Positions 4,531-30,679 of a DNA stretch of 64,000 nucleotides are shown piece by piece. Within the stretch, counting starts at the first letter, position 1. The number at the start of each line of letters is the position of its first letter. Source of the stretch: a virus; IMG/VR virus record IMGVR_UViG_3300006841_000093, positions 32,001 through 96,000 of that record, one strand, 5' to 3'. The translations under genes were made by a program, and so were the position numbers. The notes under the pieces were generated by a model, which worked only from the letters and a program-made list of their open reading frames with translations, searched no databases and was not told the origin of the DNA.

Positions 4531-5715
4531 ATGTTAAATTTAAAATCATTCATTGTGGATGATGAGTTGATAATTGATAAACCAAATTGGTATAAACTCA
4601 AAAATGAGTATTCACAACAAGAATTGAAAGATGCAATATCTGATACTATTGAGGGCTTACCATTACCATTATTTCCAATTACCGAAAAAGAAGCTAAAGA
4701 AGAATTTGAAGAATTAGTAAAGTTTGATGCAAGAACTTTATTAACTAAAGACAATCTGTATTCCAAAGCAGATTACAAGTATGAGTTGTCTCATTGGTAT
4801 TTAAAAAATAGTGTAGTGGGTAGAAAATCATCTAATTATTTTCATCAACTTGCTAGGTGGAGAGTACAACATGCAAGACATACTAGCCCCTATCGTTCTT
4901 GGACTATTAAAAAATTCCATCAAACATTTTTAAATCCTCTATGGACATTAAGTATGCCAGAGGTAAATAGTAAATATTTAAGAATGTGTATTCAAATGAG
5001 AATGTATATGGCGGCACAATATCCACCAGCAGTAGCAAAATCTCTTTACAATTTATTTGAAGCAAAAGATGTTTTAGATTTTTCTATGGGGTGGGGTGAT
5101 AGATTGGCAGGATTTCACGCCTCTAATGCAGAAAGTTATACAGGCATTGATCCTAATGAAGAAGTGATGAAAAATTATCCAAGACAAAATGAACTTTATG
5201 AAACTTATAAGAAAACAAAATTTATACAAGCTCCTGCTGAAGATGTGGACTTGAGTGATAGTGAATTTGATATGGTCTTTACATCGCCACCATATTTTCA
5301 TGTTGAAAGATATGCAGATGATGAAACACAATCTTGGAAACGATATGGAAAAGATATAGATGTTTGGTTAGGAGATTTTCTATTTCCAGTTTTGGAAAAA
5401 TGTTGGAACTCCTTAAAGGATGGTGGAACAATGATTGTCAATATAGCAGATGTATATGCAACAGATAAAGGACAAAATAAATCTTATGTATCTATTTGTG
5501 ATCCTATGAACGATTTTATAAAAACCCTTCCACAATCAGAATATACGGGATGTATCGGACTACAATTAAATCGAAGGCCTGGAAGTAATAATGATAAGCC
5601 AGAGTCAAAGAATAAAAAAATTATTGAACCAATGTGGGTATGGAAAAAAGGAGATGATAGGACATTGGATCAAATAATTGATGATACTTCCCCCTTAAGC
5701 AAATTTTTTCAATAA
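4531..5715 (+). CDS. DNA amino-methyltransferase (N4C/N6A)
   Basis: Motif I DFSMGWGDRL and motif IV TSPPYF; ends SPLSKFFQ. Confidence 0.8.
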   Translation: MLNLKSFIVDDELIIDKPNWYKLKNEYSQQELKDAISDTIEGLPLPLFPITEKEAKEEFEELVKFDARTLLTKDNLYSKADYKYELSHWYLKNSVVGRKSSNYFHQLARWRVQHARHTSPYRSWTIKKFHQTFLNPLWTLSMPEVNSKYLRMCIQMRMYMAAQYPPAVAKSLYNLFEAKDVLDFSMGWGDRLAGFHASNAESYTGIDPNEEVMKNYPRQNELYETYKKTKFIQAPAEDVDLSDSEFDMVFTSPPYFHVERYADDETQSWKRYGKDIDVWLGDFLFPVLEKCWNSLKDGGTMIVNIADVYATDKGQNKSYVSICDPMNDFIKTLPQSEYTGCIGLQLNRRPGSNNDKPESKNKKIIEPMWVWKKGDDRTLDQIIDDTSPLSKFFQ

Positions 5716-5720
5716 AAGAC

Positions 5721-5765
5721 TTGACATTTCACCCCAATTGTGCTATACTATAAGTAAACAATGAG
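5721..5765 (+). promoter_or_regulatory. Sigma70-like early promoter with conserved downstream AAACAATGAG
   Basis: TTGACA-N17-TATACT with extended -10 TG. Confidence 0.7.
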
Positions 5766-5841
5766 AATTGTTGATGTGGGCCGGTGAGTGTAGGTACTTA
5801 CTGGGAGCCTATGAGGATGGGGCGGGTCATAGGATTTCAAT

Positions 5842-5926
5842 GGGGAGGCTGAGCACGTGGTGAGCCCAACGGACTGTAAATCCGCCGGATATTCCTGTGA
5901 AGGTTCGACTCCTTCTCTCCCCACCA
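5842..5926 (+). tRNA. tRNA-Tyr(GTA)
   Basis: GGGGAGG/TCTCCCC acceptor stem, CT-GTA-AA loop, long variable arm, GAAGG-TTCGACT-CCTTC T-arm, A73, encoded CCA. Confidence 0.92.
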
Positions 5927-6019: not shown

Positions 6020-8320
6020 ATGAAAATGGAATTAGCCAATAAACAGTCAAAGTCAATTCTGGCGAAACTTCTCGCCACAGAAAACGTGACTGTTGAACAC
6101 GGCAAATACAATACAGCATCATTTGACGTAAAGAATCGTGTCCTCAGACTTCCAATTTGGAAAGAGATGAGCGGGAATCTTTACGATTTACTTGTGCTAC
6201 ACGAAGTTGGACACGCCCTGTTCACTCCTGAAGAAGGTATGCACGATGCAAAAGGAGTTGGAAGGGGTTTCAAATCTTTTCTTAATGTAGTTGAAGATGC
6301 ACGAATTGAGAGAAAAATTAAAGTTAAATATCCAGGTGGTCGCCGTTCCTTTATTGAAGGATATTCGAATTTGATGGAACGAGATTTTTTCGGCCTCAAA
6401 GATATGGATATAAGTGGTTTGGGTTTGATTGACAAGATTAATCTTCACTACAAAGTGGGAGATCATGTTGATCTTACTTTTTCTGATGAAGAAAGTGTTT
6501 TTCTTGATAGAATTGATAAAGCAAATACTTGGAAAGAAGTTGTCAAGATTTGTGAAGATCTTTACGATTATGCAAAAGAAAATGAATCTGAAACCGATAT
6601 GTCTGACCACGATTGGGAAGAACAAATGATGGAAGGTGATGAAGAATCAGATGATTATTTTGAAGATTATGAAGATTCAGAAGATGATTCAGAAGAAAAT
6701 CCTATGGAGAATGAAGCCGGTGGAGAAAATGAAGAAGGCGAGGAAGAAGAAAAAGAAGGCGAAGGTTCTGAAAAAACTCCTGCAGATGAAGGTGAAGAAG
6801 CCTTAGAAGATGATATGAGATCATTTGGTGATGAAGGTGGAGAAGATGGAGATTTTGAGCCTGAGTCAAAGACCGATAACAATTTTAGGAATAATGAAAT
6901 AGAATTGGTTTCAGAAGAATCAAAGCCTTATCGATATGTTGATCTTCCAAACAAAGTTGATTTAAAGAAAATTATTGTTTCTCACAAAGAAATTTACGAG
7001 AAGTATGTAAAATATTATTCAGCAGGTTACACAAGCCGATATAGTGATGGAGTTACTGGTGATGAATTAAAGAACGAAGCTACAAAGTTATTTCAAGAGT
7101 TTCGTAGTAAGAATAAAAAAGTTGTTGAATATCTCGCAAAAGAGTTTGAGTTGAAAAAAGCAGCGAAAGAACACGCGAGAACAGCAACGGCTAATTCAGG
7201 AATACTTGATTCCGAAAGACTTTACACTTACAAGTATAATGAACATATTTTCAAAAAGTTGAATGTTGTTCCAGATGGAAAGAATCACGGCTTGGTAATG
7301 TTTGTCGATTGGTCTGGTTCAATGTCAAGAAATATGAAAGGAACTATCGAACAAATGATGACCTTAGTTATGTTTTGTAAGAGAGTCAACATTCCTTTTG
7401 AAGTATATGCCTTTAGTGATTCTTACACAAGGTATGATGATGAAGTTAAGAACAAGTGGTATCGTGATAATTATATGTCAGATGAAAGAATTATGGATCA
7501 TGGTACTGTAGCAGTTACTCGTTTCAATCTTTTGAACTTGTTTTCTTCAAAGATGAGAGCGAAAGAACTTCACGAAGCATATATCTATATGACAGCTACC
7601 GCAGAATATTATACTGACCGATACAGATGGGATAGATCACATGATTTTAATATTCCTGATGTGATGCATTTAGGTGGAACTCCTTTGAACTCTACTTTGT
7701 TTGTTGGATTTTCAGTAATGAGAGAATTTCAAAAGAAAAATCAAGTTGATGTTATTAACAGTATTTTTCTTACTGATGGTGATTCACATTCCAGCAATGG
7801 ATATTGGAATACTGAAGGAAAGATAAGTAATTTTGATATAAGAGATGAAAATGTTATTCTTAGAGATTCAGTTTCTAAAAAATCAGTAAGGTTACAATCA
7901 AACGGACATAATCGAACAAAAGATGTAACAACTTCATTAGTTAAATTTTATAGAGAGGTTTTTGATATTAATATTGTAAACTTCTTCTTGATAGGTAGTA
8001 TGAGAAAATACGATATGGCACATTACCTTGATTCTCAAAAAAGAGCAGAAGGAGAAATTTTGGGAGCCAATTACGAAGAAATAAATACCTCACTCAGAAA
8101 ATTTCGTAAAGACAAATATATGATTATGCCTGAAATGATGGGATTCAATGAGCAGTATTTGGTTCAAGGTGGAAAGGCCTTAGAAGTTGCAGATCAACCT
8201 TTGGAAGTTGCAGAAGGAGCAACAGTAGCCCAAATGGCAAAAGCATTTAAGAAGTTCTCTACTGGAAAATTACAAAACAGAAAGCTTCTTTCAAGATTTA
8301 TTGATATGGTAGCGGCGTAA
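6020..8320 (+). CDS. CobT-like protein: N-terminal HExxH domain, acidic linker, C-terminal vWA domain
   Basis: LHEVGHAL; E/D-rich linker; MIDAS-like FVDWSGSM, LGGTPL and FLTDGDS; upstream of a CobS-like ATPase. Confidence 0.75.
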   Translation: MKMELANKQSKSILAKLLATENVTVEHGKYNTASFDVKNRVLRLPIWKEMSGNLYDLLVLHEVGHALFTPEEGMHDAKGVGRGFKSFLNVVEDARIERKIKVKYPGGRRSFIEGYSNLMERDFFGLKDMDISGLGLIDKINLHYKVGDHVDLTFSDEESVFLDRIDKANTWKEVVKICEDLYDYAKENESETDMSDHDWEEQMMEGDEESDDYFEDYEDSEDDSEENPMENEAGGENEEGEEEEKEGEGSEKTPADEGEEALEDDMRSFGDEGGEDGDFEPESKTDNNFRNNEIELVSEESKPYRYVDLPNKVDLKKIIVSHKEIYEKYVKYYSAGYTSRYSDGVTGDELKNEATKLFQEFRSKNKKVVEYLAKEFELKKAAKEHARTATANSGILDSERLYTYKYNEHIFKKLNVVPDGKNHGLVMFVDWSGSMSRNMKGTIEQMMTLVMFCKRVNIPFEVYAFSDSYTRYDDEVKNKWYRDNYMSDERIMDHGTVAVTRFNLLNLFSSKMRAKELHEAYIYMTATAEYYTDRYRWDRSHDFNIPDVMHLGGTPLNSTLFVGFSVMREFQKKNQVDVINSIFLTDGDSHSSNGYWNTEGKISNFDIRDENVILRDSVSKKSVRLQSNGHNRTKDVTTSLVKFYREVFDINIVNFFLIGSMRKYDMAHYLDSQKRAEGEILGANYEEINTSLRKFRKDKYMIMPEMMGFNEQYLVQGGKALEVADQPLEVAEGATVAQMAKAFKKFSTGKLQNRKLLSRFIDMVAA

Positions 8321-8330
8321 AAAAATTGAA

Positions 8331-8383
8331 TAAACACTTGACTTTTTACCCCAAACCGTGGTATAATATAATTAAACAATGAG
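8331..8383 (+). promoter_or_regulatory. Conserved phage early promoter cassette, copy 2
   Basis: TAAACACTTGACT-N18-TATAAT-ATAATTAAACAATGAG. Confidence 0.75.
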
Positions 8384-8421
8384 GGAATAATCCCAAAACC
8401 ATATAATGAGAGAAAAGTGAT

Positions 8422-9636
8422 ATGGAATATACTGACAAACAAATGAGTTTTCTTAGTGCAGCAGTTACCAAGTATGGTGAAGGCGCAGTTGTTTCTAAGG
8501 AAAACATTACAGAAACCGCCGAAGAAAATGGATTGAAATTTCCATTTTGGTTGACAGATACAAGGCGTATGGGTTCTTTTACTAAGGTTGATAAGGACAC
8601 ATACCGATTACCGGCGCTTAATGGTGGTGAGGGAGCTACAATAGCTGATGTTGTTGAAACAACAGTAGTAGTTGATAAAGCATCTGAAGTTGTCGTTGAA
8701 TCTAAGAATTCAGAAAGTTCAATGGATATGAGTACATATTTTAATCCAGCAGAATTGATTCCTAAAAAAGATCCGTTGTTTGTAGCACATGGACATTTTG
8801 GTGATTTGACTAAAGTTATTCAGTCAAGGAAATTCTATCCAGTATTTGAAACTGGAGAATCTGGAACTGGTAAAACTTATATGACCGAACAAGCGTGTGC
8901 CAAACTCAAGAGAGAATTTATCAGAGTAAACATTACTGTTGAAACCGATGAAGATGATCTTTTGGGTCACTACGCATTGATTGATGGTAATACAGTTTGG
9001 CAGGACGGCCCTGTAGTCATCGCAATGGAGCGTGGAGCAGTTCTTCTCCTTGATGAGATTGACTTGGCATCCAACAAAGTGATGTGTCTACAACCAATAC
9101 TTGAAGGTAAAGGTGTTTATCTGAAGAAGGTAAATCGAATGGTAAAACCAGCTGATGGTTTCACAGTAGTCGCAACCGCCAATACTAAAGGTAAAGGTTC
9201 TGAAGATGGAAGATTCGTTTTTACAAATATTTTGAACGAAGCTTTCCTTGAAAGATTTCCGATTACAATGGAAGTTGGATATCCTTCAGCACAAACCGAA
9301 AAGAAAATCGTGAACAAAGTTCTCGATTCACTTGGTGTTTCCGATACTGATTTTTCAGAAAAGTTAGTAAATTGGGCAAACGCCATTCGCAAGACTTTTT
9401 ATGATGGTGGAATTGACGAAGTTATCGCAACTCGCCGATTGGTTCATATCTCTAACGCATTCGCAATTTTCAGAGATAGAATGAAAGCCATTGAAATGTG
9501 TGTCAATCGTTTTGATGAAGACACAAAAACTAGTTTCTTGGATTTGTATTCCAAGATTGACGCCGGTGTTGACCTTGAAGAAACTGAAGAAGTTTCAGAA
9601 GAGGAATATCCCGAAGAAAATGTTAATCCTTATTAG
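8422..9636 (+). CDS. cobS: CobS/MoxR-like AAA+ ATPase
   Basis: Walker A GESGTGKT, Walker B LLLDEID, ATANTKGKG and AFLERF, as in T4-like phage CobS. Confidence 0.85.
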   Translation: MEYTDKQMSFLSAAVTKYGEGAVVSKENITETAEENGLKFPFWLTDTRRMGSFTKVDKDTYRLPALNGGEGATIADVVETTVVVDKASEVVVESKNSESSMDMSTYFNPAELIPKKDPLFVAHGHFGDLTKVIQSRKFYPVFETGESGTGKTYMTEQACAKLKREFIRVNITVETDEDDLLGHYALIDGNTVWQDGPVVIAMERGAVLLLDEIDLASNKVMCLQPILEGKGVYLKKVNRMVKPADGFTVVATANTKGKGSEDGRFVFTNILNEAFLERFPITMEVGYPSAQTEKKIVNKVLDSLGVSDTDFSEKLVNWANAIRKTFYDGGIDEVIATRRLVHISNAFAIFRDRMKAIEMCVNRFDEDTKTSFLDLYSKIDAGVDLEETEEVSEEEYPEENVNPY

Positions 9637-11180: not shown

Positions 11181-12128
11181 ATGAAAATTTCTATTGATAT
11201 AAATGAATTAAGAGAAAAGAAAATATTTGTAGGTACACCGATGTATGGTGGAATGTGTACGGGAATGTACACTAAAGCATCAGCTGATTTAGCAACCACT
11301 GCTACAAAATATGGTATGGACATAAAGTTCTTTTATCTCTTTAATGAAAGTTTAATTACAAGAGCAAGAAATTATCTAGTCGATGAATTTTTGCGTTCCC
11401 CATATACCCACCTGATGTTCATTGATTCGGACATTAATTTTAATCCACAAGATGTATTAGCACTCGCTTCATTGTGTAATGAGGACAAACCTATTATTGG
11501 TGGTCCGTACCCAAAGAAATGTATTGCATGGGAAAAAGTTCGAAACGCAGTTGATGCAGGACTTGCAGATGAAAATCCCAATGAGTTAGAAAAATATACT
11601 GGTGATTTTGTATTTAATCCAACAGCAGGAACAACTCAAATTAAAATCGATGAACCTACAGAAGTATTAGAAGTTGGTACTGGATTTGTAATGATTAGGC
11701 GAGAAGTGTTTGAAAAATTTAGAGAAGAATATCCTCAATTTTCATATAAGCCAGATCATAACCGCTCAGAACATTTTGATGGTTCACGTTATATACACGC
11801 CTTTTTTGATACTGTCATTGATAATGATACTTATGCAGGAAAAGGTTCAGGAGGTTCAGATCGTTATTTGTCTGAAGATTATATGTTTTGTCAATGGTCT
11901 AGAAAGATTGGTTTTACAACTTGGTTGTGCCCCTGGATGGAAGTAAATCATGTAGGTACTTATGTGTTTAATGGAACATTAAAAGAATTAGGTAAGTTAG
12001 AATATGCTTCACATGGTGTAGATATTACAACTAGACCTCAACAAGAAGAACGAAAGAAAAATAGAGCAGAAAGGAGGGCTGAAGCAAAGAAAGGAAAGAA
12101 GAAAAAAATAACGCAACCTCATGGTTGA
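11181..12128 (+). CDS. GT-A fold glycosyltransferase-like protein
   Basis: GTPMYGG, ESLITRARN, DxD motif FIDSDI, VGTGFVMI and SEDYMFC. Confidence 0.7.
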   Translation: MKISIDINELREKKIFVGTPMYGGMCTGMYTKASADLATTATKYGMDIKFFYLFNESLITRARNYLVDEFLRSPYTHLMFIDSDINFNPQDVLALASLCNEDKPIIGGPYPKKCIAWEKVRNAVDAGLADENPNELEKYTGDFVFNPTAGTTQIKIDEPTEVLEVGTGFVMIRREVFEKFREEYPQFSYKPDHNRSEHFDGSRYIHAFFDTVIDNDTYAGKGSGGSDRYLSEDYMFCQWSRKIGFTTWLCPWMEVNHVGTYVFNGTLKELGKLEYASHGVDITTRPQQEERKKNRAERRAEAKKGKKKKITQPHG

Positions 12129-12191: not shown

Positions 12192-12851
12192 ATGAAACTT
12201 ACAGCAGAAACAGTCGCGATACTTAAAAATTACGCAGCAATAAATCAAAACATACAGTTTAAGGAAGGTAAGACATTATCAACCATTTCCCCCCAAAAAA
12301 ATATTTTATCAAGTGCAGAAATTAGTGAAGAGATTTCACAAACATTTGCTATCTATGATCTTAATAGATTATTAGCGGCAATGAGTGCTTATGATAAAAT
12401 TCCAGAATTAATACTTGAAGAGAATCGATTGTTAATTAATGGTCAAACAAAATATACTTATGGTGATCCGGCCATGTTAGTATTACCTCCAGAGAAAAAA
12501 CTTGATTTTCCGGAGCCGGAGATACAATTTAAAATGCCAAAAGATAAGTATGATATGTGTTTGAAAATGGCATCGATTTTACAAGTTCCAGAATTAGTTG
12601 TACAAGGAGATGGAAGTAAAATATTTTTAGTTGCAACTGATACTAATAATTCTTCAGCAGATCAACATCCAGAAGAAGTTGGAACTACAGATAAACAATT
12701 TCAGATGGTTTTCAAGATTGAAAATATGAAACTTTTAAGTGGAAATTATGAAGTTGGAATCTCTTCTAAAGGTATTTCACATTTTTCACATGAACATTCT
12801 AAATTACAATATTGGATAGCAACAGAACAAAATTCAACGTTTAATGGATAA
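12192..12851 (+). CDS. gp45: Sliding clamp
   Basis: MKLTAETVAILKNYAAINQNI, FAIYDLN and FKIENMKLL; immediately before gp44. Confidence 0.9.
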   Translation: MKLTAETVAILKNYAAINQNIQFKEGKTLSTISPQKNILSSAEISEEISQTFAIYDLNRLLAAMSAYDKIPELILEENRLLINGQTKYTYGDPAMLVLPPEKKLDFPEPEIQFKMPKDKYDMCLKMASILQVPELVVQGDGSKIFLVATDTNNSSADQHPEEVGTTDKQFQMVFKIENMKLLSGNYEVGISSKGISHFSHEHSKLQYWIATEQNSTFNG

Positions 12852-12853: not shown

Positions 12854-13792
12854 ATGGAAAACTTTTTATGGGTCGAAGAATTCCGTCCTAAGACTGTAGC
12901 GGATTGTATTCTTATAGAACCAACTAAAGAAGTCTTTCAAGGTTTCGTTGATGATGGTAAAATTCCTAATTTACTTTTATCTGGCGGAGCGGGAGTAGGT
13001 AAAACTACTGTTGCTCGTGCTATGTGTGATGAAATTGGTGTAGACCATTTAATGATCAACGGATCTAATGAGGGAAGAAATATAGATACAGTAAGAACTA
13101 CTTTACAACAATACTGTAGTTCAGTTTCCATGTCAGGTGGAAGAAAAGTAGTAATAGTCGATGAGGCAGATTATATGAATGCTGATTCGGTACAACCTGC
13201 ATTAAGGGGGTTCATTGAAAAATTTAGTGCCAATGTTAGTTTTATCTTTACTTGTAATTTCCGTAATCGGATTATTGATCCTATCCATAGTCGTTGCTCT
13301 GTAGTAGAATTTATTACTCCAAGATCAGAGAAACCAAAACTCGCTCAAGAGTGTTTAGTTAGGGTTAAAGAAATTCTAACACAAAAAGGAATTAAGTTTG
13401 AAGAAAAAGTACTTGCAGAATTAGTTTTGAAACATTTTCCAGATATGAGGAGAGTGATAAATGAACTTCAAAGATATGCAGCGGGTGGAATTATTGATGC
13501 CGGTATCTTAGCACAGATTGGTGAAATCAATCTTCTTGAACTGATGAAGGCGTTGAAGGAAAAACATTTTTCAGAAGTTCGTAAATGGGTTACACAAAAT
13601 ATCGATAATGATCCAGTAAAGATTTTTAGAAAGATTTATGATGGTGTACATGAACATCTCAAAGATACTTCAATTCCACAAGCTGTTCTTGTTATTGCAG
13701 AATATCAATATAAATCTGCGTTTGTTGCAGATCAAGAAATTAACTTAGTTGCCTGTCTCACAGAGATGATGGTTGATTGCGAGTTTAAATGA
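12854..13792 (+). CDS. gp44: Clamp loader large subunit
   Basis: LWVEEFRP, GGAGVGKTT, DEAD, SRC and FPDMRR. Confidence 0.95.
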   Translation: MENFLWVEEFRPKTVADCILIEPTKEVFQGFVDDGKIPNLLLSGGAGVGKTTVARAMCDEIGVDHLMINGSNEGRNIDTVRTTLQQYCSSVSMSGGRKVVIVDEADYMNADSVQPALRGFIEKFSANVSFIFTCNFRNRIIDPIHSRCSVVEFITPRSEKPKLAQECLVRVKEILTQKGIKFEEKVLAELVLKHFPDMRRVINELQRYAAGGIIDAGILAQIGEINLLELMKALKEKHFSEVRKWVTQNIDNDPVKIFRKIYDGVHEHLKDTSIPQAVLVIAEYQYKSAFVADQEINLVACLTEMMVDCEFK

Positions 13793-15237
13793 ACGAAGAA
13801 CTATTAAAAATATATGAAGATAATACAAATGAATATGGATTGCCGGTATTCGATTTATTTACTTGGCAAAATATAAATACAAAATATATTGATCCTGATA
13901 CTTCTTTGCCTATGTCTAAACGGGCTAAAGTCATGATCGATACTATGATACATTTCTTTGAAAAACACAAACCTAAATTTCCATTTAGAGATTTTGATGA
14001 GCACGATGTTAGACAAAACTTTTATACTTTATGTAATCTCAATCTAAAAGATAATATCTTCCCTAAAGAAAAATGTAAAACTGTACATGAAAAATACGAT
14101 GACTATGTAGGAAATTTTCCAGAATGGGGAATGGGTATTTTAAATTTTAGTTCAAATTATAATAATATTTCAGATATGTTCATGAATCGTGAACGAATGA
14201 AATGTAGTTATGATCGTTCACCTAGCCCAATTACTATGTGGAATGATCAAACAGATTTAAAACAAATTCTTTCTCCAATATGGAGACTTCATCCTGATTG
14301 TGGAATGCCACTCAAGAATAATTTATATATTGAGGGTGTTAGAGTCGGAGCATATTTTGCTACTCAGTTTAAACCTTCAGTAGCAAAAGCCTTTTATGAT
14401 TTTACTAAGTCTAAAAAAGTTCTTGACACAAGTTCAGGATGGGGTGATCGAATGGCAGGATTCTTTGCATCAAATGCCGAAGAATATTATGGTATGGACC
14501 CGAATGGTGATCTACATCAAAACTATCACTCAATGGCCGTACAATATAATAATTGGTTAGGTGCAGAGAATCCCCAAACTACAACTGGAGATAATTGGTT
14601 TCAAGTTGAAGGTAAAAAGAAAGTAAAAATTTATAGATCACCGGCAGAGGATTTGCCGTGGGATGAAATTCCAGATGATATTGATATCATGTTTAGTTCA
14701 CCTCCGTATTTTGCTACTGAAAAATATGCAGAAGGAAGCAAGTTCGAAAATGATCAATCATGGAGTCGTTATAATTCTTATGAAGCATGGAGAGATGGGT
14801 TTTATCTTCCAGTAATGAAAAAAGCATTTGAGAAATTATCTCCCGGTGGATGGTTAATGGTGAATATCATGGACCCAAAAGTTAAAGGTAAAAGACATAA
14901 ATCTTGTGATGATTTGGTAAATGATCTTAAAGAATATTTTGTAGGTCAAATTGGAATGAGAATTATGGCTAGACCTAAAAGTATTAAATCTTTTGAGGGA
15001 GATACCCATGAAGAAAGAAAAGCAAAATATGATGAATGGCAAGCAAAATGGTTTATTGAATCAGTTTGGTGTTTTAGAAAGCCTGATCCTAGTAATAATA
15101 ATGTTGATATCTTTGCTCCTTATAAAGATTCTACTTTGGATGGCATGGGGCCAATCGTTGTTCAACAACCTATTAAAAAGAAAAAGTTATCAGAAGCAAC
15201 AACTGAGAAATCTTCATTAGAGGGGTTTTTTGATTAA
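13789..15237 (+). CDS. DNA amino-methyltransferase
   Basis: ATQFKP, DTSSGWGDRM and FSSPPYF; ends SSLEGFFD; paralog of 4531 and 17107. Confidence 0.8.
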   Translation: MNEELLKIYEDNTNEYGLPVFDLFTWQNINTKYIDPDTSLPMSKRAKVMIDTMIHFFEKHKPKFPFRDFDEHDVRQNFYTLCNLNLKDNIFPKEKCKTVHEKYDDYVGNFPEWGMGILNFSSNYNNISDMFMNRERMKCSYDRSPSPITMWNDQTDLKQILSPIWRLHPDCGMPLKNNLYIEGVRVGAYFATQFKPSVAKAFYDFTKSKKVLDTSSGWGDRMAGFFASNAEEYYGMDPNGDLHQNYHSMAVQYNNWLGAENPQTTTGDNWFQVEGKKKVKIYRSPAEDLPWDEIPDDIDIMFSSPPYFATEKYAEGSKFENDQSWSRYNSYEAWRDGFYLPVMKKAFEKLSPGGWLMVNIMDPKVKGKRHKSCDDLVNDLKEYFVGQIGMRIMARPKSIKSFEGDTHEERKAKYDEWQAKWFIESVWCFRKPDPSNNNVDIFAPYKDSTLDGMGPIVVQQPIKKKKLSEATTEKSSLEGFFD

Positions 15238-16036: not shown

Positions 16037-16245
16037 AAAAATTAGATGAAGATGTAATTAGAGTTTGTGGATGGGTATGTTCTTTGTTATGTGTATTAAT
16101 AGGATCATATTTTGTTTGGCCACACATTCATGTAGCACTATTAGGAATTGCATTTTTTTACTTTGCAGTGAGAATTTTCAATTTCTCCACTTTTAAAGAA
16201 TACGCAGAAGATCGTAAAAAACTTTTACATAGATTACAGGGGTAA
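16033..16245 (+). CDS. Small two-TM membrane protein
   Basis: Two hydrophobic segments; overlapping GTGA start. Confidence 0.5.
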   Translation: MKKLDEDVIRVCGWVCSLLCVLIGSYFVWPHIHVALLGIAFFYFAVRIFNFSTFKEYAEDRKKLLHRLQG

Positions 16246-16247
16246 CT

Positions 16248-18051: not shown

Positions 18052-18069
18052 AATTCGGATATAGTACAC

Positions 18070-18097
18070 TTGACAAATTAAAAAGTCATGATATACT
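18070..18097 (+). promoter_or_regulatory. Sigma70-like promoter
   Basis: TTGACA-N16-TATACT with TG extension. Confidence 0.55.
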
Positions 18098-18194
18098 ATA
18101 TAATAGTAGATAACAATATGGTTTTGTTATCAAGTAAGTTGTTATACCTTAAACGTGGTGGACGCAACTCTAAATAACTTTTTTGGAGATAGTA

Positions 18195-19229: not shown

Positions 19230-19238
19230 AAATATTAA

Positions 19239-20675: not shown

Positions 20676-21772
20676 AATTATATAATGAAGATTGCATGAA
20701 ACAAATGCAAGAGATGATTGATGATGGAATTCAAGTTGATTCTGTTGTTACAGATCCCCCATACGGTATTCATTTTATGGGTAAGGATTGGGATAAATTT
20801 AAAGGTACTAAAGTTACCAAGAGTCAAGTAGTTACAAATTTGGGAGCAGGAATGAGAATGACTACTCACAAAGAAAATATGGATTTTCAGAAATGGTGTA
20901 ACGAATGGGCAATTTTGTGTTTAGAGTTATTAAAGCCAGGTGGTTATATTTTAGCATTTAGTTCTTCAAGGACTTATCATCATTTGGCTTGTGGTATTGA
21001 ATCAGCAGGATTTGAAGTACGAGATCAACTTATGTGGTTGTATGGTTCAGGATTTCCAAAGAGTATGAATATCGGAAAAGGTTGGGGAACTGCACTCAAA
21101 CCAGCACACGAACCTGTTGTTATGGCGAGGAAACCAGTTGAAGGAACTGTCGCAGATAATGTTTTGAAACATGGAACAGGTGGTATCAATATTGATGATT
21201 GTAGAATAGATTTATCTGAAGGTGATGATCCAAGATTGGGCGGTAAAGGAACTTGGAAAACTGATAAGATGGCAAAAGATGTTTATGTTGGTGGATATGC
21301 AGGAGAAGATCAAGGATCAAGTGAGTTGGGTAGATTTCCAGCAAATGTGATGCACGATGGTTTAGAACAAGAGTGGGCACGATTCTTCTATTGTCCAAAA
21401 GTTTCTAGAAATGAAAGGAACGGGGGATTGGAAAATATGGAAGAAAAGATACACAATACAGAAGATTGTACTAATTTACCATCTATAAGAACTAATAGTG
21501 TAAATACTTCTAGTGGGAAACAAAGAACAGTCAATCCTACCAAAAATAATCATCCAACAGTCAAACCGATTGAGTTGATGAAATACCTTTGTCGCCTTGT
21601 AACTCCAAAAGGTGGAATTGTTCTTGATCCATTTATGGGTTCAGGTTCTACTGGAATGGCTGCGAAGGATGAAGGATTTGATTTTGTGGGAATTGAACGG
21701 GAGAAGGAATATTTTGAGATTGCAGAAGCACGTATCAATGCTTCTTCACCTTTATTGGATTTTTTTGAATAA
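20672..21772 (+). CDS. Beta-class DNA methyltransferase
   Basis: TDPPY, GSGFPK, HPTVKP and DPFMGSGST; ends SPLLDFFE. Confidence 0.9.
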   Translation: MKLYNEDCMKQMQEMIDDGIQVDSVVTDPPYGIHFMGKDWDKFKGTKVTKSQVVTNLGAGMRMTTHKENMDFQKWCNEWAILCLELLKPGGYILAFSSSRTYHHLACGIESAGFEVRDQLMWLYGSGFPKSMNIGKGWGTALKPAHEPVVMARKPVEGTVADNVLKHGTGGINIDDCRIDLSEGDDPRLGGKGTWKTDKMAKDVYVGGYAGEDQGSSELGRFPANVMHDGLEQEWARFFYCPKVSRNERNGGLENMEEKIHNTEDCTNLPSIRTNSVNTSSGKQRTVNPTKNNHPTVKPIELMKYLCRLVTPKGGIVLDPFMGSGSTGMAAKDEGFDFVGIEREKEYFEIAEARINASSPLLDFFE

Positions 21773-21822
21773 ACACTTGACTTTTTCATCAAAACCGTGG
21801 TATAATATAACTGAACAATGAG
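21770..21822 (+). promoter_or_regulatory. Conserved phage early promoter cassette, copy 3
   Basis: TAAACACTTGACT-N18-TATAAT-ATAACTGAACAATGAG. Confidence 0.75.
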
Positions 21823-21833
21823 TAATAACCTTA

Positions 21834-22103
21834 ATGAGAGAGAATATGTTTGAGTTCAGAGCGGGTAGAAAACGAGTCGTAAAAACAGTTGAAACTGTAG
21901 ATGAAGCTAACAAATTGATGAGAGCAATGATTGCGATTCGCAATAACGATTCCCTTTGGGAAAATATTAATGTGAAAACTGGACATCTCCGTGCAGTTGA
22001 TGAATTGGAAAAGTTAGTCGGCACTATCTTTGATGTGTTTGATACTATGTCCATTTATGTAAATGGTAAATCTGTAAGGAAAATTTGGGCGAGGGGTTTC
22101 TAA
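21834..22103 (+). CDS. Hypothetical early protein (start may be 21846)
   Basis: First ORF after the conserved promoter. Confidence 0.55.
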   Translation: MRENMFEFRAGRKRVVKTVETVDEANKLMRAMIAIRNNDSLWENINVKTGHLRAVDELEKLVGTIFDVFDTMSIYVNGKSVRKIWARGF

Positions 22104-22654
22104 TGAGAGACTTTAGTATTGTAGAAACTGCTTCTAGGGCAGAAATGAAAGAAATTTTATTTTATGTTTTGAAGTGGTTTAAGAAAAAAACACTTGGTAA
22201 TCCATTTAATTATAATCGAGCATTTGAGTGGTTACAGGCTGAAATTCTTGGTTTTGAATTAGAGAAAGTAGGTGGTGGTTCTGATGGAAAAGATAAAGAT
22301 GGTGTAACAGCGGAGTTTAAAGCTTCTGCTTGGAAAGGTCTTGGCGCGAAGGGTCAAGAATTGACAAACTCTTTTACATACAATGGAACAAGTCGATATG
22401 AAGATTGGAATGAACAAGAAGATTATTGTCTGAAAAAGATTTTTCGTGATCCTTTTCATTTTTGGTCTATCATCAATTATGAGGAAGGGAAATTCGTAAA
22501 AACATTTAAAGTTCCTGCAGAAACAGTTTGTAATTTACTTATGCCTAAATGGACAAATAGTTGGAAAAATCCTAGTAAAAAAGATCCGAGAATAGGTGGT
22601 TCAGTTTCAACTAAAGATTTAGCAGGAGAAAATTTTGAAATCATCAATCACTAA
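22103..22654 (+). CDS. Putative PD-(D/E)xK restriction-endonuclease-like protein
   Basis: GSDGKDKDGVTAEFKAS fits D-x(n)-E-x-K; overlaps a methyltransferase gene. ORF track start is 22085; 22103 is the TAATG-coupled ATG. Confidence 0.5.
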   Translation: MRDFSIVETASRAEMKEILFYVLKWFKKKTLGNPFNYNRAFEWLQAEILGFELEKVGGGSDGKDKDGVTAEFKASAWKGLGAKGQELTNSFTYNGTSRYEDWNEQEDYCLKKIFRDPFHFWSIINYEEGKFVKTFKVPAETVCNLLMPKWTNSWKNPSKKDPRIGGSVSTKDLAGENFEIINH

Positions 22655-23363
22655 ACAAACAGATTTAGAATTACTTTCTACGATTAAAAATAATTCTGTT
22701 GATCTGGTTCTTACAGATCCACCGTATATTATCTCTAGAAAATCTGGGATGCAATCCTATAAAAATAGTTTAGAGAAGGGTGGAAAGGTAGATGAAAAAT
22801 TTGGAAAGAAATATGCTATAACTACTGAATTTGGTGAGTGGGATAATTCTTACACTATAGATGATTTAGAAAAAGCGATAAATGAATTTTATAGAATACT
22901 AAAATCTGGTGGTTCATGTATTATATTTTTTGATATATGGAAAATAGAAACTCTGTCAAAGTTGTTAAGTAAATTTTCCAAACATAGATTTATTGAATGG
23001 GTTAAATCAAATCCAATGCCAGTCAATCAATATGCAACATATCTATCAAATGCAAGAGAGATAGCTATTAGTTGTGTAAAAGGTGGTAAGGCAACATTTA
23101 ACAGTAAATATGATAATGGAATTTATGATTATCCAATATATGGCGGAAAAGATAGATTTCATCCTACTCAAAAATCTTTACCGATGTTTGAGGAATTAAT
23201 TAAAAAACATTCTAATGAAGGAGATACAGTAGTTGATCCTTATGCCGGAAGTGGTACTACTGCGGTAGCCGCTATAAACACAAATAGAAATTATTTGTGC
23301 TGTGAACCCTCTGATGAATATTTTGAGAAGGGGAAAAAAAGATGTGAAGATGCAAAAGCATAA
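22635..23363 (+). CDS. Beta-class DNA methyltransferase
   Basis: LTDPPY, FHPTQK and DPYAGSGTT. Confidence 0.9.
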   Translation: MKSSITKQTDLELLSTIKNNSVDLVLTDPPYIISRKSGMQSYKNSLEKGGKVDEKFGKKYAITTEFGEWDNSYTIDDLEKAINEFYRILKSGGSCIIFFDIWKIETLSKLLSKFSKHRFIEWVKSNPMPVNQYATYLSNAREIAISCVKGGKATFNSKYDNGIYDYPIYGGKDRFHPTQKSLPMFEELIKKHSNEGDTVVDPYAGSGTTAVAAINTNRNYLCCEPSDEYFEKGKKRCEDAKA

Positions 23364-23371
23364 ATAATTTT

Positions 23372-24472
23372 ATGGAATTACAGCAGTTTAAAGAAGTTAG
23401 TCAATTATTCATGGATTATGATGGAGAAGTTCAGATTAATCCATTTGCAAAGGTTCATTGGGGTACTGTTCAAGAGAATCACCTCAATGGAAAACTGTTT
23501 GTTGACAATGATAAAAACTATGGTATAATAGGTAGTGAGGCTAAAACAAGTAGAGAAGTAAAAGATTTTTCTAATCAAGTTGTTGGTCAAATTAAAGTAG
23601 GAGATATCTGTATCAAGAGATTTTTCTACAAAGAAGGATATAGAGAAAATGTAGTAAATCATATTTCGAAAATGAGAGAATCAACATTCGGAGATCGTGA
23701 TTTATGGTTTACTCATATTAATATGGAACATGAAGGAGATAAAGCGGTTGCTAAAGAATTTAATGCAACTTGGTTATCTTCAAGAATAGACGCGGTAGCA
23801 GCAGAAGTTAGAGGAGTATATTATTCTGGAGAACAAAAACAAATAGGATTAGGAAAACATGAAAATATTCCTTGTTGTAGATTAGATTATCCATATATTG
23901 AAGGATTAGATGAATTTTCAGAAGAATTAGATGAATACGTGAAAGATGGATGGGGAATAGCAGATCATCAAAAATCTTATGGTGGTAAAGATAAAACGTG
24001 GACATCTATCGAAATAATACCATTAATAGTTACTTATGGTACTAAAAAAGCAAAACAAGGTCTTAGGGGCGATTTAAACGAAGAATATATTAAGAGATTT
24101 CCTATTATTGAGAATATTATCAATCAGATAACCACTTTTGATGACTGTTTGTGGTTAGCAGTTGCTAAAGTATCTCCAAAAGGTGGTAATATATCAAGAC
24201 ATAGTGATAAAGGTATCGACAAAATGAATGCCGGAATACAGATTGGTAAAACGGCAAGAATACATTATGTGATGAAATCTAATCCTGAAACATATTTTCA
24301 ATTACAAGACCTTCAGGGAAAGACTCATAAATATTCTATGAAACAAGGTGAATATTGGTATATGGATAAGAGAAAACCCCACTCCGTATACAATAAAGGT
24401 GATACATTTAGGTATCACATGATTTTTGATATGAAAGTAACACAAGATTTATGGGACCATTTGATTTTATAA
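23372..24472 (+). CDS. Fusion of an N-terminal GNAT-like domain and a C-terminal Asp/Asn beta-hydroxylase-like 2OG-Fe(II) domain
   Basis: C-terminal ISRHSD...RIH...GEYWYMDKRKPHSVYN...RYHMIFD; N-terminal beta/alpha pattern like acetyltransferases (weaker). Confidence 0.6.
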   Translation: MELQQFKEVSQLFMDYDGEVQINPFAKVHWGTVQENHLNGKLFVDNDKNYGIIGSEAKTSREVKDFSNQVVGQIKVGDICIKRFFYKEGYRENVVNHISKMRESTFGDRDLWFTHINMEHEGDKAVAKEFNATWLSSRIDAVAAEVRGVYYSGEQKQIGLGKHENIPCCRLDYPYIEGLDEFSEELDEYVKDGWGIADHQKSYGGKDKTWTSIEIIPLIVTYGTKKAKQGLRGDLNEEYIKRFPIIENIINQITTFDDCLWLAVAKVSPKGGNISRHSDKGIDKMNAGIQIGKTARIHYVMKSNPETYFQLQDLQGKTHKYSMKQGEYWYMDKRKPHSVYNKGDTFRYHMIFDMKVTQDLWDHLIL

Positions 24473-24855
24473 AAGCAATCAATACACATAAAAATATCAT
24501 GAAAGATGGTGATCCATTGGCTGAAAAGGATTATGTACCTTTTCTTGTTAATCGTGGTTTATCGTTTTTTCAAGATACTGTTATACAAGTCAATGAAATG
24601 AATAGGTTACATTTTATTGACCACAAGCTCCAATTCGATTATTTGCTAAATAACATTAGACCAAGAAAGAGATGGTCTAAGTGGTTGAAACCAGACAAAA
24701 TTGATAATCTAGAACTAGTCAAAGAGTATTTTGGTTTCGGTAATGAAAAAGCAAAGGATGCTCTTGAAATCCTTTCTAGTGAGGATATCGAAGAGATTAA
24801 GAGAAAACTTGCAAAAGGTGGAATGGAGAAAAATAATGACAGTAAACATAGATGA
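24451..24855 (+). CDS. gp62: Clamp loader small subunit
   Basis: PFDFIKAIN, YVPFLVNRGLS, NEMN, QFDYLLNNIRPRKR and KEYFG..NEKA. Confidence 0.9.
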   Translation: MGPFDFIKAINTHKNIMKDGDPLAEKDYVPFLVNRGLSFFQDTVIQVNEMNRLHFIDHKLQFDYLLNNIRPRKRWSKWLKPDKIDNLELVKEYFGFGNEKAKDALEILSSEDIEEIKRKLAKGGMEKNNDSKHR

Positions 24856-27554: not shown

Positions 27555-27563
27555 GGAAATGAA

Positions 27564-28040
27564 ATGGCAGGAAATATACAATTATCAAAGAACTTTTGGC
27601 TTAGTGAATTAATCAAGAGTTCTACTGCAGAAAGAAAGGGTATTGATAATACACCAGAGACAGAACATTTAGTTAATCTTACAGTAATAACACAACAAAT
27701 TTTACAACCGGTCAGAGAACATTTCGGAGTAATCACAGTCAATTCTGGATATCGAGGACCCAAATTAAATGCAGCTATTGGTGGATCAAAAACCTCTCAG
27801 CACATGAATGGTGAGGCGGTAGATTTTGAGCAATTAGGTACTCCTAATCCAACAGTAGCAAAATGGATAACAGAAAATCTAGTATGGGATCAAATCATAT
27901 TAGAGTTTTATAAAAAAGGTGAACCTAATTCGGGGTGGATACATTGTTCATACAAAAAAAATGGTCAAAATCGAAAGAAGATAACTACAGCATTAGTACA
28001 AAATGGAAAGACAGTTTACAAAAACGGGTTTGTTGTTTAA
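27564..28040 (+). CDS. Peptidase M15A endolysin
   Basis: LSKNFWLSEL, SGYR, SQHMNGEAVD and WIHCS zinc motifs. Confidence 0.85.
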   Translation: MAGNIQLSKNFWLSELIKSSTAERKGIDNTPETEHLVNLTVITQQILQPVREHFGVITVNSGYRGPKLNAAIGGSKTSQHMNGEAVDFEQLGTPNPTVAKWITENLVWDQIILEFYKKGEPNSGWIHCSYKKNGQNRKKITTALVQNGKTVYKNGFVV

Positions 28041-28109
28041 TCGAATTTTACATTAAATTTTATCTTCAAATACTTTTCACGGTGGGCGCGTTCATGGGTC
28101 GCTCATGGG

Positions 28110-28138
28110 TTGACAAACACATAAAACTGTGTTATAAT
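28110..28138 (+). promoter_or_regulatory. Sigma70-like promoter for gp43
   Basis: TTGACA-N17-TATAAT with TG extension. Confidence 0.7.
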
Positions 28139-28204
28139 AGGTTAGATGAAATTAATAGTGATTATGATAAAGAAACGCGAACAAACTGGTATCCCAAAAA
28201 CTAA

Positions 28205-30679
28205 ATGTCAAAATTTTATACTAACGTAGTATGTCTAGGTAATTATATTTTCGAAAGGGGAATAGAAAATGGATTACCTTTTGAAGAAAGACATGAATTT
28301 AAACCTACCTTATATATTCCTACCACAACTGAAACTAAATGGCGAACACTTGAAGATGAGCCAGTAGCCCCTGTTCAATGGGGATCTATTAAAGAAACCC
28401 GCGAATCAGTAAAAAAGTATGAAGGTGTAGATAACATGAAAATCTACGGCCATACAAATTATAATTATTCTTTTATTGCTGAAACATATCCAGAAAATAT
28501 TGATTACAATTTAGAACATCTTAAAATGATGTTTCTAGATATTGAAGTTGCTTCTGAACAAGGATTTCCTGATCCTGAAAACGCATCAGAAGAAGTAGTT
28601 GCCATTACTACAAAGATGGGTGATGATATTCAAGTTTGGGGTTGTAATGAATTTAAGAATGATAAAGAGGATATTACATATAATAGATGTTTTGATGAAC
28701 GACAATTATTAGAAGAATTTGTCATGTATTGGCAGAAGAATTGTCCTCATGTAATTTCTGGTTGGAACACAAAAACATTTGATACTCCATATCTTATTAA
28801 CAGAATTCGTAATATCTTAAATGAAACGTGGGTCAAGAAACTTTCACCGTGGGGATTTGTTAAAGAACAAAAAATCTTTGGTATGGGTGGTCGTGAAGTT
28901 CAGACTTATGAAATCTATGGTGTGTCTGAAATTGATTACTTGGATGCCTACAAGAAGTTTACTTATACTAATCAAGAGTCATATAGATTAGATCATATTG
29001 CTTATGTAGAATTGGGTCAAACTAAACTAGACTTTTCTGAAGTAGCAACACTCCATGAATTGTACAAGAAAGATTTTCAAAAGTTCATTGAATACAATAT
29101 TCAAGATACATTATTGGTTAGTCGCCTTGAAGATAAATTAAAACTTTTAGAATTGATTATTTCTCTGGCATATCTGTCGAAGTGTAATCTCACAGATGTA
29201 TTTGCACAGACTAGAATGTGGGATTGTATTATTTACAATCATCTTTTGAGAGAGAAAATTGTAATTCCTCAAAAGACTAAACATAGTAAAGGTGATATGT
29301 ATGAGGGTGCTTATGTTAAAGCACCACAATGTGGTAGACATGAATGGATTGTGAGTTTTGATTTAAACAGTCTATATCCACATTTGATTATGCAATATAA
29401 TATTTCTCCTGAAACCATCTTAGGACAATGGAAAGATGAAATAGGAGTAGAAGGTTTAATCGATAAAGAATTTGATACATCAGTTTGGAAACAAAAAGAT
29501 ATAACAGTTACACCGAATGGATCTGTTTATCGTAGAGATAAGCAAGGGTTTCTTCCCCAATTAATGGAAAGTATGTACAATGATAGGGTGAAATATAAAA
29601 AGAAAATGTTAGATGAACAGAAAAAGGGAAGAAACTCTGATCCAAATAAATTATCACAATATTACAACTATCAACAAAATTTAAAGATTGCATTAAACTC
29701 CGCCTATGGAGCAATGGGTAATCAATGGTTTCGTTATTATGATGAACGTAATGCAGAAGCAGTTACTGCAGCAGGTCAGTTATCAATTCAATGGGCCGAG
29801 AATGCAGTAAACAATTATTTAAACAAAACATTAGGTACACAAGATGTTGACTATATTGTTGCTATGGATACTGATTCTTTATATGTTCGTCTTGATGATC
29901 TTGTTTCTAGAATTGGTATTACCGATAAGGAAAAAATCATTGGATTCTTGGACAAGGCCTGTGGAAGAATCGAAGAAGTAATTGAAAAATGTTATACTGA
30001 ATTAGCGGAGTACATGAACGCCTATCAACAAAAGATGGTCATGAAACGTGAGGTCATTGCTGATACAGGAATTTGGACAGCAAAGAAACATTATATTCTG
30101 AACGTTCACGATTCTGAGGGTGTTCGATATGAAGAACCAAAATTAAAGATTGTGGGTATTGAAGCAATTAAAAGTTCAACACCAGAAGCATGTAGACAAT
30201 CACTTAGAGAGATTTTCAATATTATTATTTCAGGCACAGAAGATGATGTTATTGGTTATATTGAAAAGTTTAAAGAGAAGTTTTTTGGTTTGAATATGGA
30301 AGCTGTAGCATTTCCAAGATCTGTTAATGGATTAAAAAAATATAAAGATTCAGCAACAATTTATAAAAAATCAACTCCAATTCATGTTAAGGGAAGTTTA
30401 ATTTATAATCACATGTTGAGGACTAAGAAATTAACTAGAAGATATCCTGTTATACAAGAGGGTGAAAAGGTTAAGTTCACTTATCTCAAAGATCCAAATC
30501 CAGCAGGTGATAAAGTAATTTCTGTATTAAATAGTTTACCAAAAGAATTTGAATTAGAGAAATATATAGATTATGATACCCAATTTGAGAAAGCATTTAT
30601 CGAACCATTAAAAGGTGTATTAGATGTAATTGGGTGGGAAACAGAGAGAAAGTCAAGTCTTGACAATTTTTTTATATAG
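28205..30679 (+). CDS. gp43: Family B DNA polymerase
   Basis: Exo DIE, SFDLNSLYP, KIALNSAYG and MDTDS; C-terminal clamp-binding SSLDNFFI. Confidence 0.97.
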   Translation: MSKFYTNVVCLGNYIFERGIENGLPFEERHEFKPTLYIPTTTETKWRTLEDEPVAPVQWGSIKETRESVKKYEGVDNMKIYGHTNYNYSFIAETYPENIDYNLEHLKMMFLDIEVASEQGFPDPENASEEVVAITTKMGDDIQVWGCNEFKNDKEDITYNRCFDERQLLEEFVMYWQKNCPHVISGWNTKTFDTPYLINRIRNILNETWVKKLSPWGFVKEQKIFGMGGREVQTYEIYGVSEIDYLDAYKKFTYTNQESYRLDHIAYVELGQTKLDFSEVATLHELYKKDFQKFIEYNIQDTLLVSRLEDKLKLLELIISLAYLSKCNLTDVFAQTRMWDCIIYNHLLREKIVIPQKTKHSKGDMYEGAYVKAPQCGRHEWIVSFDLNSLYPHLIMQYNISPETILGQWKDEIGVEGLIDKEFDTSVWKQKDITVTPNGSVYRRDKQGFLPQLMESMYNDRVKYKKKMLDEQKKGRNSDPNKLSQYYNYQQNLKIALNSAYGAMGNQWFRYYDERNAEAVTAAGQLSIQWAENAVNNYLNKTLGTQDVDYIVAMDTDSLYVRLDDLVSRIGITDKEKIIGFLDKACGRIEEVIEKCYTELAEYMNAYQQKMVMKREVIADTGIWTAKKHYILNVHDSEGVRYEEPKLKIVGIEAIKSSTPEACRQSLREIFNIIISGTEDDVIGYIEKFKEKFFGLNMEAVAFPRSVNGLKKYKDSATIYKKSTPIHVKGSLIYNHMLRTKKLTRRYPVIQEGEKVKFTYLKDPNPAGDKVISVLNSLPKEFELEKYIDYDTQFEKAFIEPLKGVLDVIGWETERKSSLDNFFI

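Follow-up and report, generated by a model that had tools for sequence, protein, structure and literature searches.

Five proteins encoded by a T4-like phage end in the same short peptide, and we consider it likely (with a probability of roughly 0.75) that this tail is the clade's version of the T4-type epitope that binds the gp45 sliding clamp, reused here by enzymes of DNA modification. The stretch analysed (the window, 64,000 nucleotides) comprises bases 32001-96000 of a single viral contig of 134,505 bp, IMG/VR record IMGVR_UViG_3300006841_000093, which is complete by CheckV. The carriers are the DNA polymerase gp43, whose C-terminus reads SSLDNFFI (stop at position 30679 of the window), three methyltransferases (MTases), namely MTase394 (SPLSKFFQ, 5715), MTase482 (SSLEGFFD, 15237) and MTase366 (SPLLDFFE, 21772), and an AsnB-type glutamine amidotransferase, hereafter AsnB (NPLESFFG, 20675). 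The C-terminus of a D-2-hydroxyacid dehydrogenase, NALFGD (17126), is a weaker candidate for such a tail. All these ends had been pointed out in a reading of the letters alone (the sequence-only reading), and the five tails stand at the stop positions that it had given. The identities that it had assigned also hold by Pfam, which recovers three N6_N4-type MTases, a GATase_7 plus Asn_synthase protein and a family-B polymerase.

The tail is confined to these proteins and to their ends. The protein set of the whole genome consisted of 216 greedy non-overlapping open reading frames (ORFs), and the motif was counted in the 175 plus-strand proteins of at least 60 amino acids (39,594 residues). The motif [STN][STP]LxxFF occurs five times in these residues, each time at the C-terminus (residues -8 to -2), and its carriers are gp43, MTase394, MTase482, MTase366 and AsnB only. 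There are 11 instances of the looser LxxFF, and 5 of these occupy the C-terminal positions -6 to -2. About 0.03-0.05 terminal motifs would be expected against the five observed (Poisson P(≥5) = 2.2e-9), and composition-preserving resampling never gave more than 2 terminal motifs in 20,000 rounds. The sequence-only reading had allowed that LxxFF ends might be equally common on non-DNA proteins of this phage, which would have undone it; among the 175 proteins the motif is absent from structural and all other non-DNA proteins. It is a short motif, and one might invoke coincidence, or a part of each fold's own structure. With P ~2e-9 and with tails that lie beyond the ends of the Pfam and PDB alignments, after variable linkers, this explanation is effectively refuted. 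Alternatively, the tail could have nothing to do with the clamp and instead tag early replication-phase proteins for degradation, timing or localisation, as a degron or packaging signal would; short hydrophobic C-termini are able to act as degrons, and the tailed genes are all located in the early/replication region. Such a tag is very improbable: only 5 of ~175 proteins have the tail, it is missing from most other proteins of the early/replication phase (gp44, gp62, UvsX, the helicase, regA and dUTPase), and a tag would leave unexplained the clamp-epitope homology and the beta-clamp-type motifs on homologs from other phages that are described below.

The tail of gp43 links the motif to the clamp. 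In T4, the clamp epitopes of gp43, gp33 and gp55 are interchangeable (PMC2988020), which confirms what the sequence-only reading had stated about the C-terminal peptides in T4 and RB69. The HMMER alignment of the phage gp43 reaches the C-terminus and places KSSLDNFF over KASLDFLF of T4 and KASLFDMF of RB69. The late sigma factor gp55 (phrog_234) ends in TALELFMSAA, an F-M variant of the tail, and 59 of 64 distinct homologs have LE[LM]FM followed by 2-4 residues at this end; the gp55 tail is thus related to the motif and serves as an internal positive control. The putative docking platform itself, gp45, can be aligned over its full length with the clamps of RB69 (1b77/1b8h) and T4 (1czd), with E = 1e-18. 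The gp44 gene follows directly after that of gp45, and the cognate clamp and loader (gp45, gp44 and gp62) are all encoded. As with the T4 and RB69 epitopes of gp43, gp33 and gp55, we see an extreme C-terminal hydrophobic/acidic peptide beyond a divergent linker in a phage with cognate gp45/gp44/gp62. The consensus differs, being LxxFF here and LDFLF or LFDMF there, and the carriers differ more: three MTase-fold enzymes and AsnB (in relatives also Mom-family and GNAT proteins), none of which is a known T4 clamp client.

It is also evident that the tails were added to enzymes whose folds are complete without them. MTase394, MTase482 and a third paralog, MTase314, share motif IV (SPPY) and a motif I of GWGDR type. 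In their alignment the common fold ends at EPxWxFxK; the tailed members then add 13-50 non-conserved residues, followed by LxxFFx, whereas MTase314 and the family members in a second phage lineage (clade B, see below) stop at the fold end. The linker before the tail is ~50 amino acids long in MTase482, and a linker and tail of 21 amino acids lie beyond the fold in MTase394. An AF2 model of MTase394 has high confidence (predicted local distance difference test score, pLDDT, of 90; predicted template-modelling score, pTM, of 0.88) that is lower over the last 14 residues. A Foldseek search with this model returned generic class I MTase/amino-MTase folds only (such as RlmLK, Trm11 and CmoB; TM ~0.3), with no clue to the transferred group. 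Similarly, E. coli AsnB (1ct9) can be aligned to the phage AsnB up to residue 457 only, and alignments of MTase366 with homologs from other phages mostly end, among the matches listed, at residues 355-359. In two of four inspected MTase366 homologs, both from Pseudomonas phages, the end is of beta-clamp type, namely QLNLF-SA in one and QLDIF near the end in the other, a small sample. The tails are, on these alignments, appended modules placed after variable linkers past the end of the catalytic fold.

The tails are conserved among relatives. MTase394 orthologs keep the tail as SPLNKFFV, and MTase482 orthologs in IMG/VR relatives end in [ST][ST]LxGFF[DE] in 22 of 23 ORFs; the linker varies among the 13 distinct close orthologs, all of which have L-6, G-4 and F-3. 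The dehydrogenase end is N[AS]LF[GR]D in 19 of 19 related ORFs, and more distant relatives end in KSFFED, NILFGN or NPLFGD. Close AsnB relatives keep NPLE[SN]F[FLY]. All AsnB homologs of at least 64% identity with an intact C-terminus end in [SP]L[ED]xF[FMLI] plus 0-3 residues, some of them in SLE[EK]FM. Viral AsnB homologs of two distant lineages, 58 distinct sequences in all, end without exception in a tail with phenylalanine and an aromatic residue, from which the association of the tail with AsnB is, by comparison of these homologs, older and more constant than that with any single MTase. AsnB relatives of 548 amino acids (~45% identity, on contigs of up to 566 kb) end in ARIKVTELA and are untailed; they are presumed to be cellular, with the long contigs as the only basis.

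An insertion in one group of relatives bears on the retention of the MTase482 tail. In the locus L005 (6902-7405; compare 15190-15260 of the window), an HNH homing-endonuclease gene interrupts the MTase482 ortholog immediately before its final 8 codons. The HNH ORF is closed by the former tail together with the beginning of the next gene downstream (ASLAGFFD), and duplicate tail codons close the MTase (TTLDGFFE). The tail was retained through the insertion, since a second copy of its codons closes the MTase. The HNH endonuclease ending in ASLAGFFD was considered as a further clamp client and rejected, its tail being the product of this duplication.

The second phage lineage, represented by ~60 loci from an AsnB profile scan, has its own form of the tail on its polymerase, AsnB, a GNAT and MTases. 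Its polymerase (~30% identity) ends in KFFxF, and its AsnB ends in KF[FW] plus 0-4 residues in 62 of 62 ORFs. The GNAT acetyltransferase adjoining AsnB has a KFF-type end (EKFFxF in most), and beta-class MTases end in NKFF[SG]. Strict covariation between the lineages (LxxFF in clade A, KFFxF in clade B) would be too strong a statement and was dropped: it is partial only, as many clade-B AsnB tails read LxKFF. A gp44-like loader is found near the polymerase loci of this lineage. Directly after the polymerase lies a gene for 237 amino acids (L113:14595-15305; L101:8050-8766) with a weak DNA_pol3_beta_3 match (E = 1e-3), which is probably the lineage's own divergent sliding clamp. A possible third flavour of aromatic tail may be present in a clade of 478-amino-acid metagenomic AsnB proteins of ~52% identity (P0039-P0050), which end in KESIFW.

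Docking by the tail was also addressed by structure prediction. For AsnB residues 436-478 modelled with the gp45 trimer, the ipSAE interface score was 0.41 (0.41, 0.45 and 0.41 in the individual runs), against 0.01 for the best control. The runs agreed in at least 44% of contacts, with a partner pLDDT of at least 40. When the clamp was replaced in the controls, the predicted interface with the AsnB tail was gone (0.01). Of 80 solved complexes 58 reach the pass mark, as do 2 of 110 mismatched pairs, and passes with an ipSAE of 0.60 or lower comprise 7 of those 80 solved complexes and both passing mismatches. Moreover, the pass may reflect likeness or memory, because a similar complex, that of RB69 gp45 with the polymerase peptide (1b8h), has been solved. 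The prediction is weak support. The proposal of the sequence-only reading that modification enzymes ride the clamp therefore stands in part: the comparative lines (the gp43 and gp55 tails, the add-on build, the conservation and the second lineage) fit a docking peptide, and the one complex prediction is weak.

The tail might instead dock to a shared partner other than gp45, such as gp32, gp59, the helicase, a nucleoid hub or an assembly factor, with the gp43 tail having two uses or a changed use. The weak gp45 complex score would agree with this, as would the report that, in cyanophage-type phages, clamp binding by the gp33 homolog is not obvious from sequence (PMC2988020). Set against it are the positional homology of the gp43 tail to the T4 and RB69 epitopes, the related epitope kept by gp55, the cognate gp45 and clamp loader that flank the gene island described below, and the loss of the predicted interface when the clamp is swapped. 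We regard another partner as improbable. Clamp docking is favoured because the motif is exclusive to these proteins, the gp43 tail is homologous to those of T4 and RB69, gp55 has a related tail, the tails are built as add-ons and conserved, a second lineage repeats the pattern, and homologs in other phages carry beta-clamp-type motifs.

Several observations weigh against this interpretation. The sole structural prediction is weak, and the T4 work leaves open the site on gp45 at which the epitope binds (PMC2988020). MTase314, MTase242, a pyridoxal-phosphate (PLP)-dependent enzyme and an oxygenase encoded among the tailed genes have no tail, which suggests that tethering is not required of every step. 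Clade-B members of the MTase394 family are untailed, and the C-termini of CmoX and CmoY of Synechococcus phage S-B43, two enzymes characterised by experiment, were checked and have no clamp-type tails. AsnB scores 284 bits on TIGR01536, the NCBI asparagine synthase equivalog, against a cut-off of 267.1, and some AsnB-like proteins that are ~45% identical and taken as cellular are fused to a 2-hydroxyacid dehydrogenase. The last two points, with the ~45% identity itself, indicate small-molecule ancestry and possibly a small-molecule substrate.

Thus AsnB and the dehydrogenase could be small-molecule enzymes, engaged in asparagine or donor synthesis, whose tails concentrate them near the replisome as a clamp metabolon or are relics. 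The TIGR01536 match, the resemblance to presumed cellular AsnB, the metagenomic fusions and an AsnRS-like catalytic core encoded at 2546-3433 all agree with such a role. The scores are not uniform, AsnB reaching 287 on NF006949 with a cut-off of 499. The tail is present in all 58 distinct viral homologs of two distant lineages and absent from the presumed cellular ones. Furthermore, the segment that reads TTIR in E. coli and TTVR in human asparagine synthetase is aligned to TQVS in the phage AsnB and in the viral and presumed cellular proteins nearest to it. Work by Boehlein et al. in 1997 reportedly found Thr322, Thr323 and Arg325 of the E. coli enzyme to be needed for beta-aspartyl-AMP formation, and since this segment reads TQVS, the subfamily may not make asparagine. 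A published AsnB homolog, CmoY, amidates a DNA base (PMC12783734). On balance a purely small-molecule role is rather unlikely, and we favour DNA-modification enzymes that carry a clamp tail. The fusions (P0051, P0094 and P0095; 768-779 amino acids, without an aromatic tail) are natural joins of an AsnB-subfamily protein and a D-2-hydroxyacid dehydrogenase, and their existence assigns both enzymes to a common pathway. P0070 and P0077 likewise reach ~760 amino acids, with a C-terminal half without assigned family. A scan of genome contigs with the fusion P0095 found no relative.

Clamp-binding peptides are textbook knowledge for polymerases, for T4 late-transcription factors and for eukaryotic DNMT1. 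In animals, the binding of DNMT1 to PCNA through a PIP-box, the box of PCNA-interacting proteins, underlies replication-coupled maintenance methylation (PMC7225939, PMC9690074). The likeness lies in a DNA methyltransferase on a PCNA-fold trimeric clamp held by a short LxxFF-like peptide, the docking being predicted here from the tails. The differences are that the present system is that of a phage with unrelated enzymes, that its peptide forms the extreme C-terminus and lacks the PIP-box glutamine, and that tailoring enzymes are among the putative clients. Clients of the bacterial beta clamp (QL[SD]LF) likewise rely on a short peptide at the terminus, with another clamp and another motif, and this phage brings its own gp45. 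We found no published report of clamp tails on phage DNA-modification enzymes, and no mention of a clamp in the two papers that describe the most similar chemistry (PMC12783734, PMC8989533).

The first of these pathways is that of phage S-B43, in which CmoA, CmoX and CmoY form a 5-carboxymethylcytosine-glycine pathway and CmoY, a homolog of asparagine synthetase, amidates 5-carboxymethylcytosine in DNA; a second cluster of ligases, with a glutaminase domain, is uncharacterised (PMC12783734). There a MTase-fold enzyme adds a handle to a DNA base and an asparagine-synthetase homolog amidates it, as would be the case here, and the sister ligase cluster bears a glutaminase domain like AsnB here. 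Searches of the complete genome gave no match to CmoA (TIGR00740), to a C5-MTase (PF00145, SPPC) or to ParB_N by Pfam, and the transferases here are of SPPY/DPPY amino-MTase types. The second is the thymidine hypermodification of phages M6 and ViI, where gp52 of M6 is the decarboxylase of DNA-borne amino-acid adducts (PMC8989533). The likeness is in the post-replicative tailoring of an amino-acid-like DNA adduct and in the PLP enzyme, a gp52 homolog. The entry enzyme differs, being MTase-fold here. A ThyA-family hydroxymethylase (PF00303) has no match in the complete genome, which has ThyX instead, and neither 5-HMUDK nor aGPT-Pplase is among the Pfam and PHROG matches of the island that holds most of the tailed genes, no accession-aimed search having been made. 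With CmoA, C5-MTase, ParB_N and ThyA absent, membership in the CmoA/X/Y or the 5-hydroxymethyldeoxyuridine (5-hmdU) pathway was rejected; by its gene content, the system of this phage is contained in neither published pathway.

In the favoured scheme, gp44/62 load the gp45 trimer at replication forks, and gp45 would then be a tool-belt on which the polymerase and gp55 move over newly synthesised duplex DNA. The same clamp would also carry MTase394, MTase482, MTase366 and the tailoring enzymes AsnB and possibly the 2-hydroxyacid dehydrogenase; we infer physical gp45 binding and replication coupling of the tailed enzymes from their ends. An exocyclic amine would receive an amino-acid-like group from a MTase-fold transferase; the amine, keto acid and carboxylate of this group would afterwards be altered by the PLP enzyme, the dehydrogenase and AsnB through deamination or decarboxylation, keto-acid reduction and amidation. 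The substrate of AsnB would thereby be a base-linked carboxylate in DNA. A DNA-borne substrate for AsnB and the dehydrogenase is plausible by analogy with CmoY and M6 gp52, and less certain than the docking. This chemistry is a coherent guess.

We can extend this, tentatively, to a picture in which gp45 is an assembly platform: the transferase, the dehydrogenase and the amidotransferase would dock by a polymerase-type tail and together build an undescribed, larger-than-methyl adduct on new DNA, one possible form being an amino-carboxy-alkyl group derived from S-adenosylmethionine (SAM) on an exocyclic amine, turned into a hydroxy-amide. A polymerase-like tail would then be a general, sequence-only marker of DNA-acting enzymes (AsnB, GNAT, Mom, dehydrogenase) in phages. 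We think this extension possible, with the odds against it. The clamp-docking reading itself, if right, would explain whole-genome modification that is fast enough to escape host nucleases, the chemistry being coupled to the fork, and would provide a cheap sequence rule for which metabolic-looking genes, such as AsnB, dehydrogenase and GNAT genes, act on DNA. Abundant marine phages would then have, in the four-gene cassette described below, the probable source of a base modification not yet described, and there would be a hint as to why recombinant hypermodification enzymes may work poorly without the clamp.

Table 1. Genes of the sliding clamp, its loader, the candidate clients and the untailed island proteins in the window
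Feature	Position	Strand	Matches and sequence features
MTase394, SPPY-type class I SAM-dependent amino-methyltransferase-fold enzyme	4531-5715	+	Pfam Methyltransf_25, N6_N4_Mtase; SPPY at residue 252; tail encoded at 5689-5712
gp45 sliding clamp, proposed docking platform	12192-12851	+	PF09116 gp45-slide_C
gp44 clamp-loader large subunit, left island border	12854-13792	+	Pfam Gp44_lid, AAA
MTase482, paralog of MTase394, first core-cassette gene	13789-15237	+	N6_N4_Mtase; SPPY at residue 304; tail at 15211-15234
PLP-dependent enzyme, untailed	15230-16036	+	phrog_7093; homolog of Pseudomonas phage M6 gp52
D-2-hydroxyacid dehydrogenase	16248-17126	+	Pfam 2-Hacid_dh, 2-Hacid_dh_C; NALFGD at 17106-17123
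MTase314, untailed paralog of MTase394 and MTase482	17107-18051	+	SPPY; stops at last fold strand (EPVFLFRKK)
348-amino-acid phrog_2558 protein, untailed	18183-19229	+	weak ParB-like similarity
AsnB-type glutamine amidotransferase, 478 amino acids	19239-20675	+	Pfam GATase_7 + Asn_synthase; N-terminal MCGFV (N-terminal-nucleophile Cys2); PP-loop SGGVDS; tail at 20649-20672
MTase366, beta-class DPPY DNA methyltransferase	20672-21772	+	N6_N4_Mtase E = 7e-38, residues 22-352; DPPY plus DPFMGSG; tail at 21746-21769
MTase242, untailed beta-class DPPY DNA methyltransferase	22635-23363	+	DPPY; Pfam above cut-off
Cupin/Asp_Arg_Hydrox-like oxygenase, untailed, last island gene	23372-24472	+	PF05118 E = 2.5e-10
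gp62 clamp-loader small subunit, right island border	24451-24855	+	phrog_225, E = 2.8e-40
gp43 family-B DNA polymerase	28205-30679	+	PF00136/PF03104; tail at 30653-30676

Nearly all genes of the window are on the plus strand (Table 1), and its GC content is ~33%. Apart from MTase394 and gp43, the tailed genes lie at 13789-21772, within an island of 10.7 kb (13789-24472) between gp44 and gp62. The phage polymerase is 51% identical to those of cyanomyoviruses and megablast found no DNA-level match of the island in cultured phages, from which we take the source to be an uncultured marine T4-like phage. All five MTases of Table 1 have a motif IV of the form [DNS]PP[YF], with Pfam N6/N4 scores above the cut-offs. 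The core cassette consists of a MTase-fold enzyme, the M6-gp52-like PLP enzyme, the 2-hydroxyacid dehydrogenase and AsnB. The same set (a tailed 420-amino-acid MTase, the PLP enzyme, the dehydrogenase and a tailed AsnB) is found directly behind gp43 in the relatives L072 and L076, which makes it a mobile cassette; the oxygenase also follows AsnB in L076. The PLP enzyme has 62 matches in the phage collection, almost all in M6/YuA-like and Bordetella phages, at 24-26% identity over 99% of the length and with E values down to 3e-17. The M6 match adjoins a radical-SAM gene, by which it is recognised as gp52, and the PLP enzyme is, by homology, a gp52-type enzyme.

The slot between gp44 and gp62 is a hotspot, with different cargo in the relatives L062 (1166-5880), L047 (5843-7453) and L044 (9651-13633). 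This cargo includes three Mom-family genes and a DruA-like gene in one relative, a GmrSD_N/HNH protein in another, and several proteins without family. One of these Mom-family DNA-modification proteins ends in SNLNDFFK. In the more distant relative L055, gp44 is directly followed by an ORF for 128 amino acids, presumably gp62, and then by regA.

Other genes deserve mention. Downstream of the window end by 27 kb (G000:C1:123055-123929; L066:11055-11929), two adjacent and unrelated proteins share another C-terminal peptide: the first is basic, has 197 amino acids and ends in ITDKQFTADL, and the second is Cys-rich, with CxxC motifs and 94 amino acids, and ends in VTDKQFSADLGKFMT before the stop. 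In relatives the end of the 94-amino-acid protein is TDKQFTxxL or has a GKF[ML][TK] extension. The common peptide may be a second docking tag or mark a gp33-like clamp client. A 94-amino-acid Cys-rich protein ending in DLGKFMT was examined as a candidate for gp33 and rejected, as it has no PHROG or Pfam match and the GKFM end is found in some relatives only.

The sole sizeable minus-strand gene of the window (2546-3433) encodes the catalytic core of a class II aminoacyl-tRNA synthetase of 295 amino acids (tRNA-synt_2), nearest to AsnRS/AspRS, with weak similarity to EpmA and without the anticodon-binding domain; a phosphoribosyltransferase gene (1398-1952) adjoins it. Directly after MTase394, at 6020-9636, a 766-amino-acid protein without family is followed by a MoxR/CbbQ-type AAA_5 ATPase of 404 amino acids, which together resemble a CobT/CobS pair, and in the relative L044 a gene similar to tryptophan halogenases stands between this pair and the MTase394 ortholog. 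Immediately upstream of gp45, in a position that is kept in relatives, a 315-amino-acid phrog_1574 protein (11181-12128) has a weak glycosyltransferase-like (Anp1) match and may represent a further DNA-modification gene.

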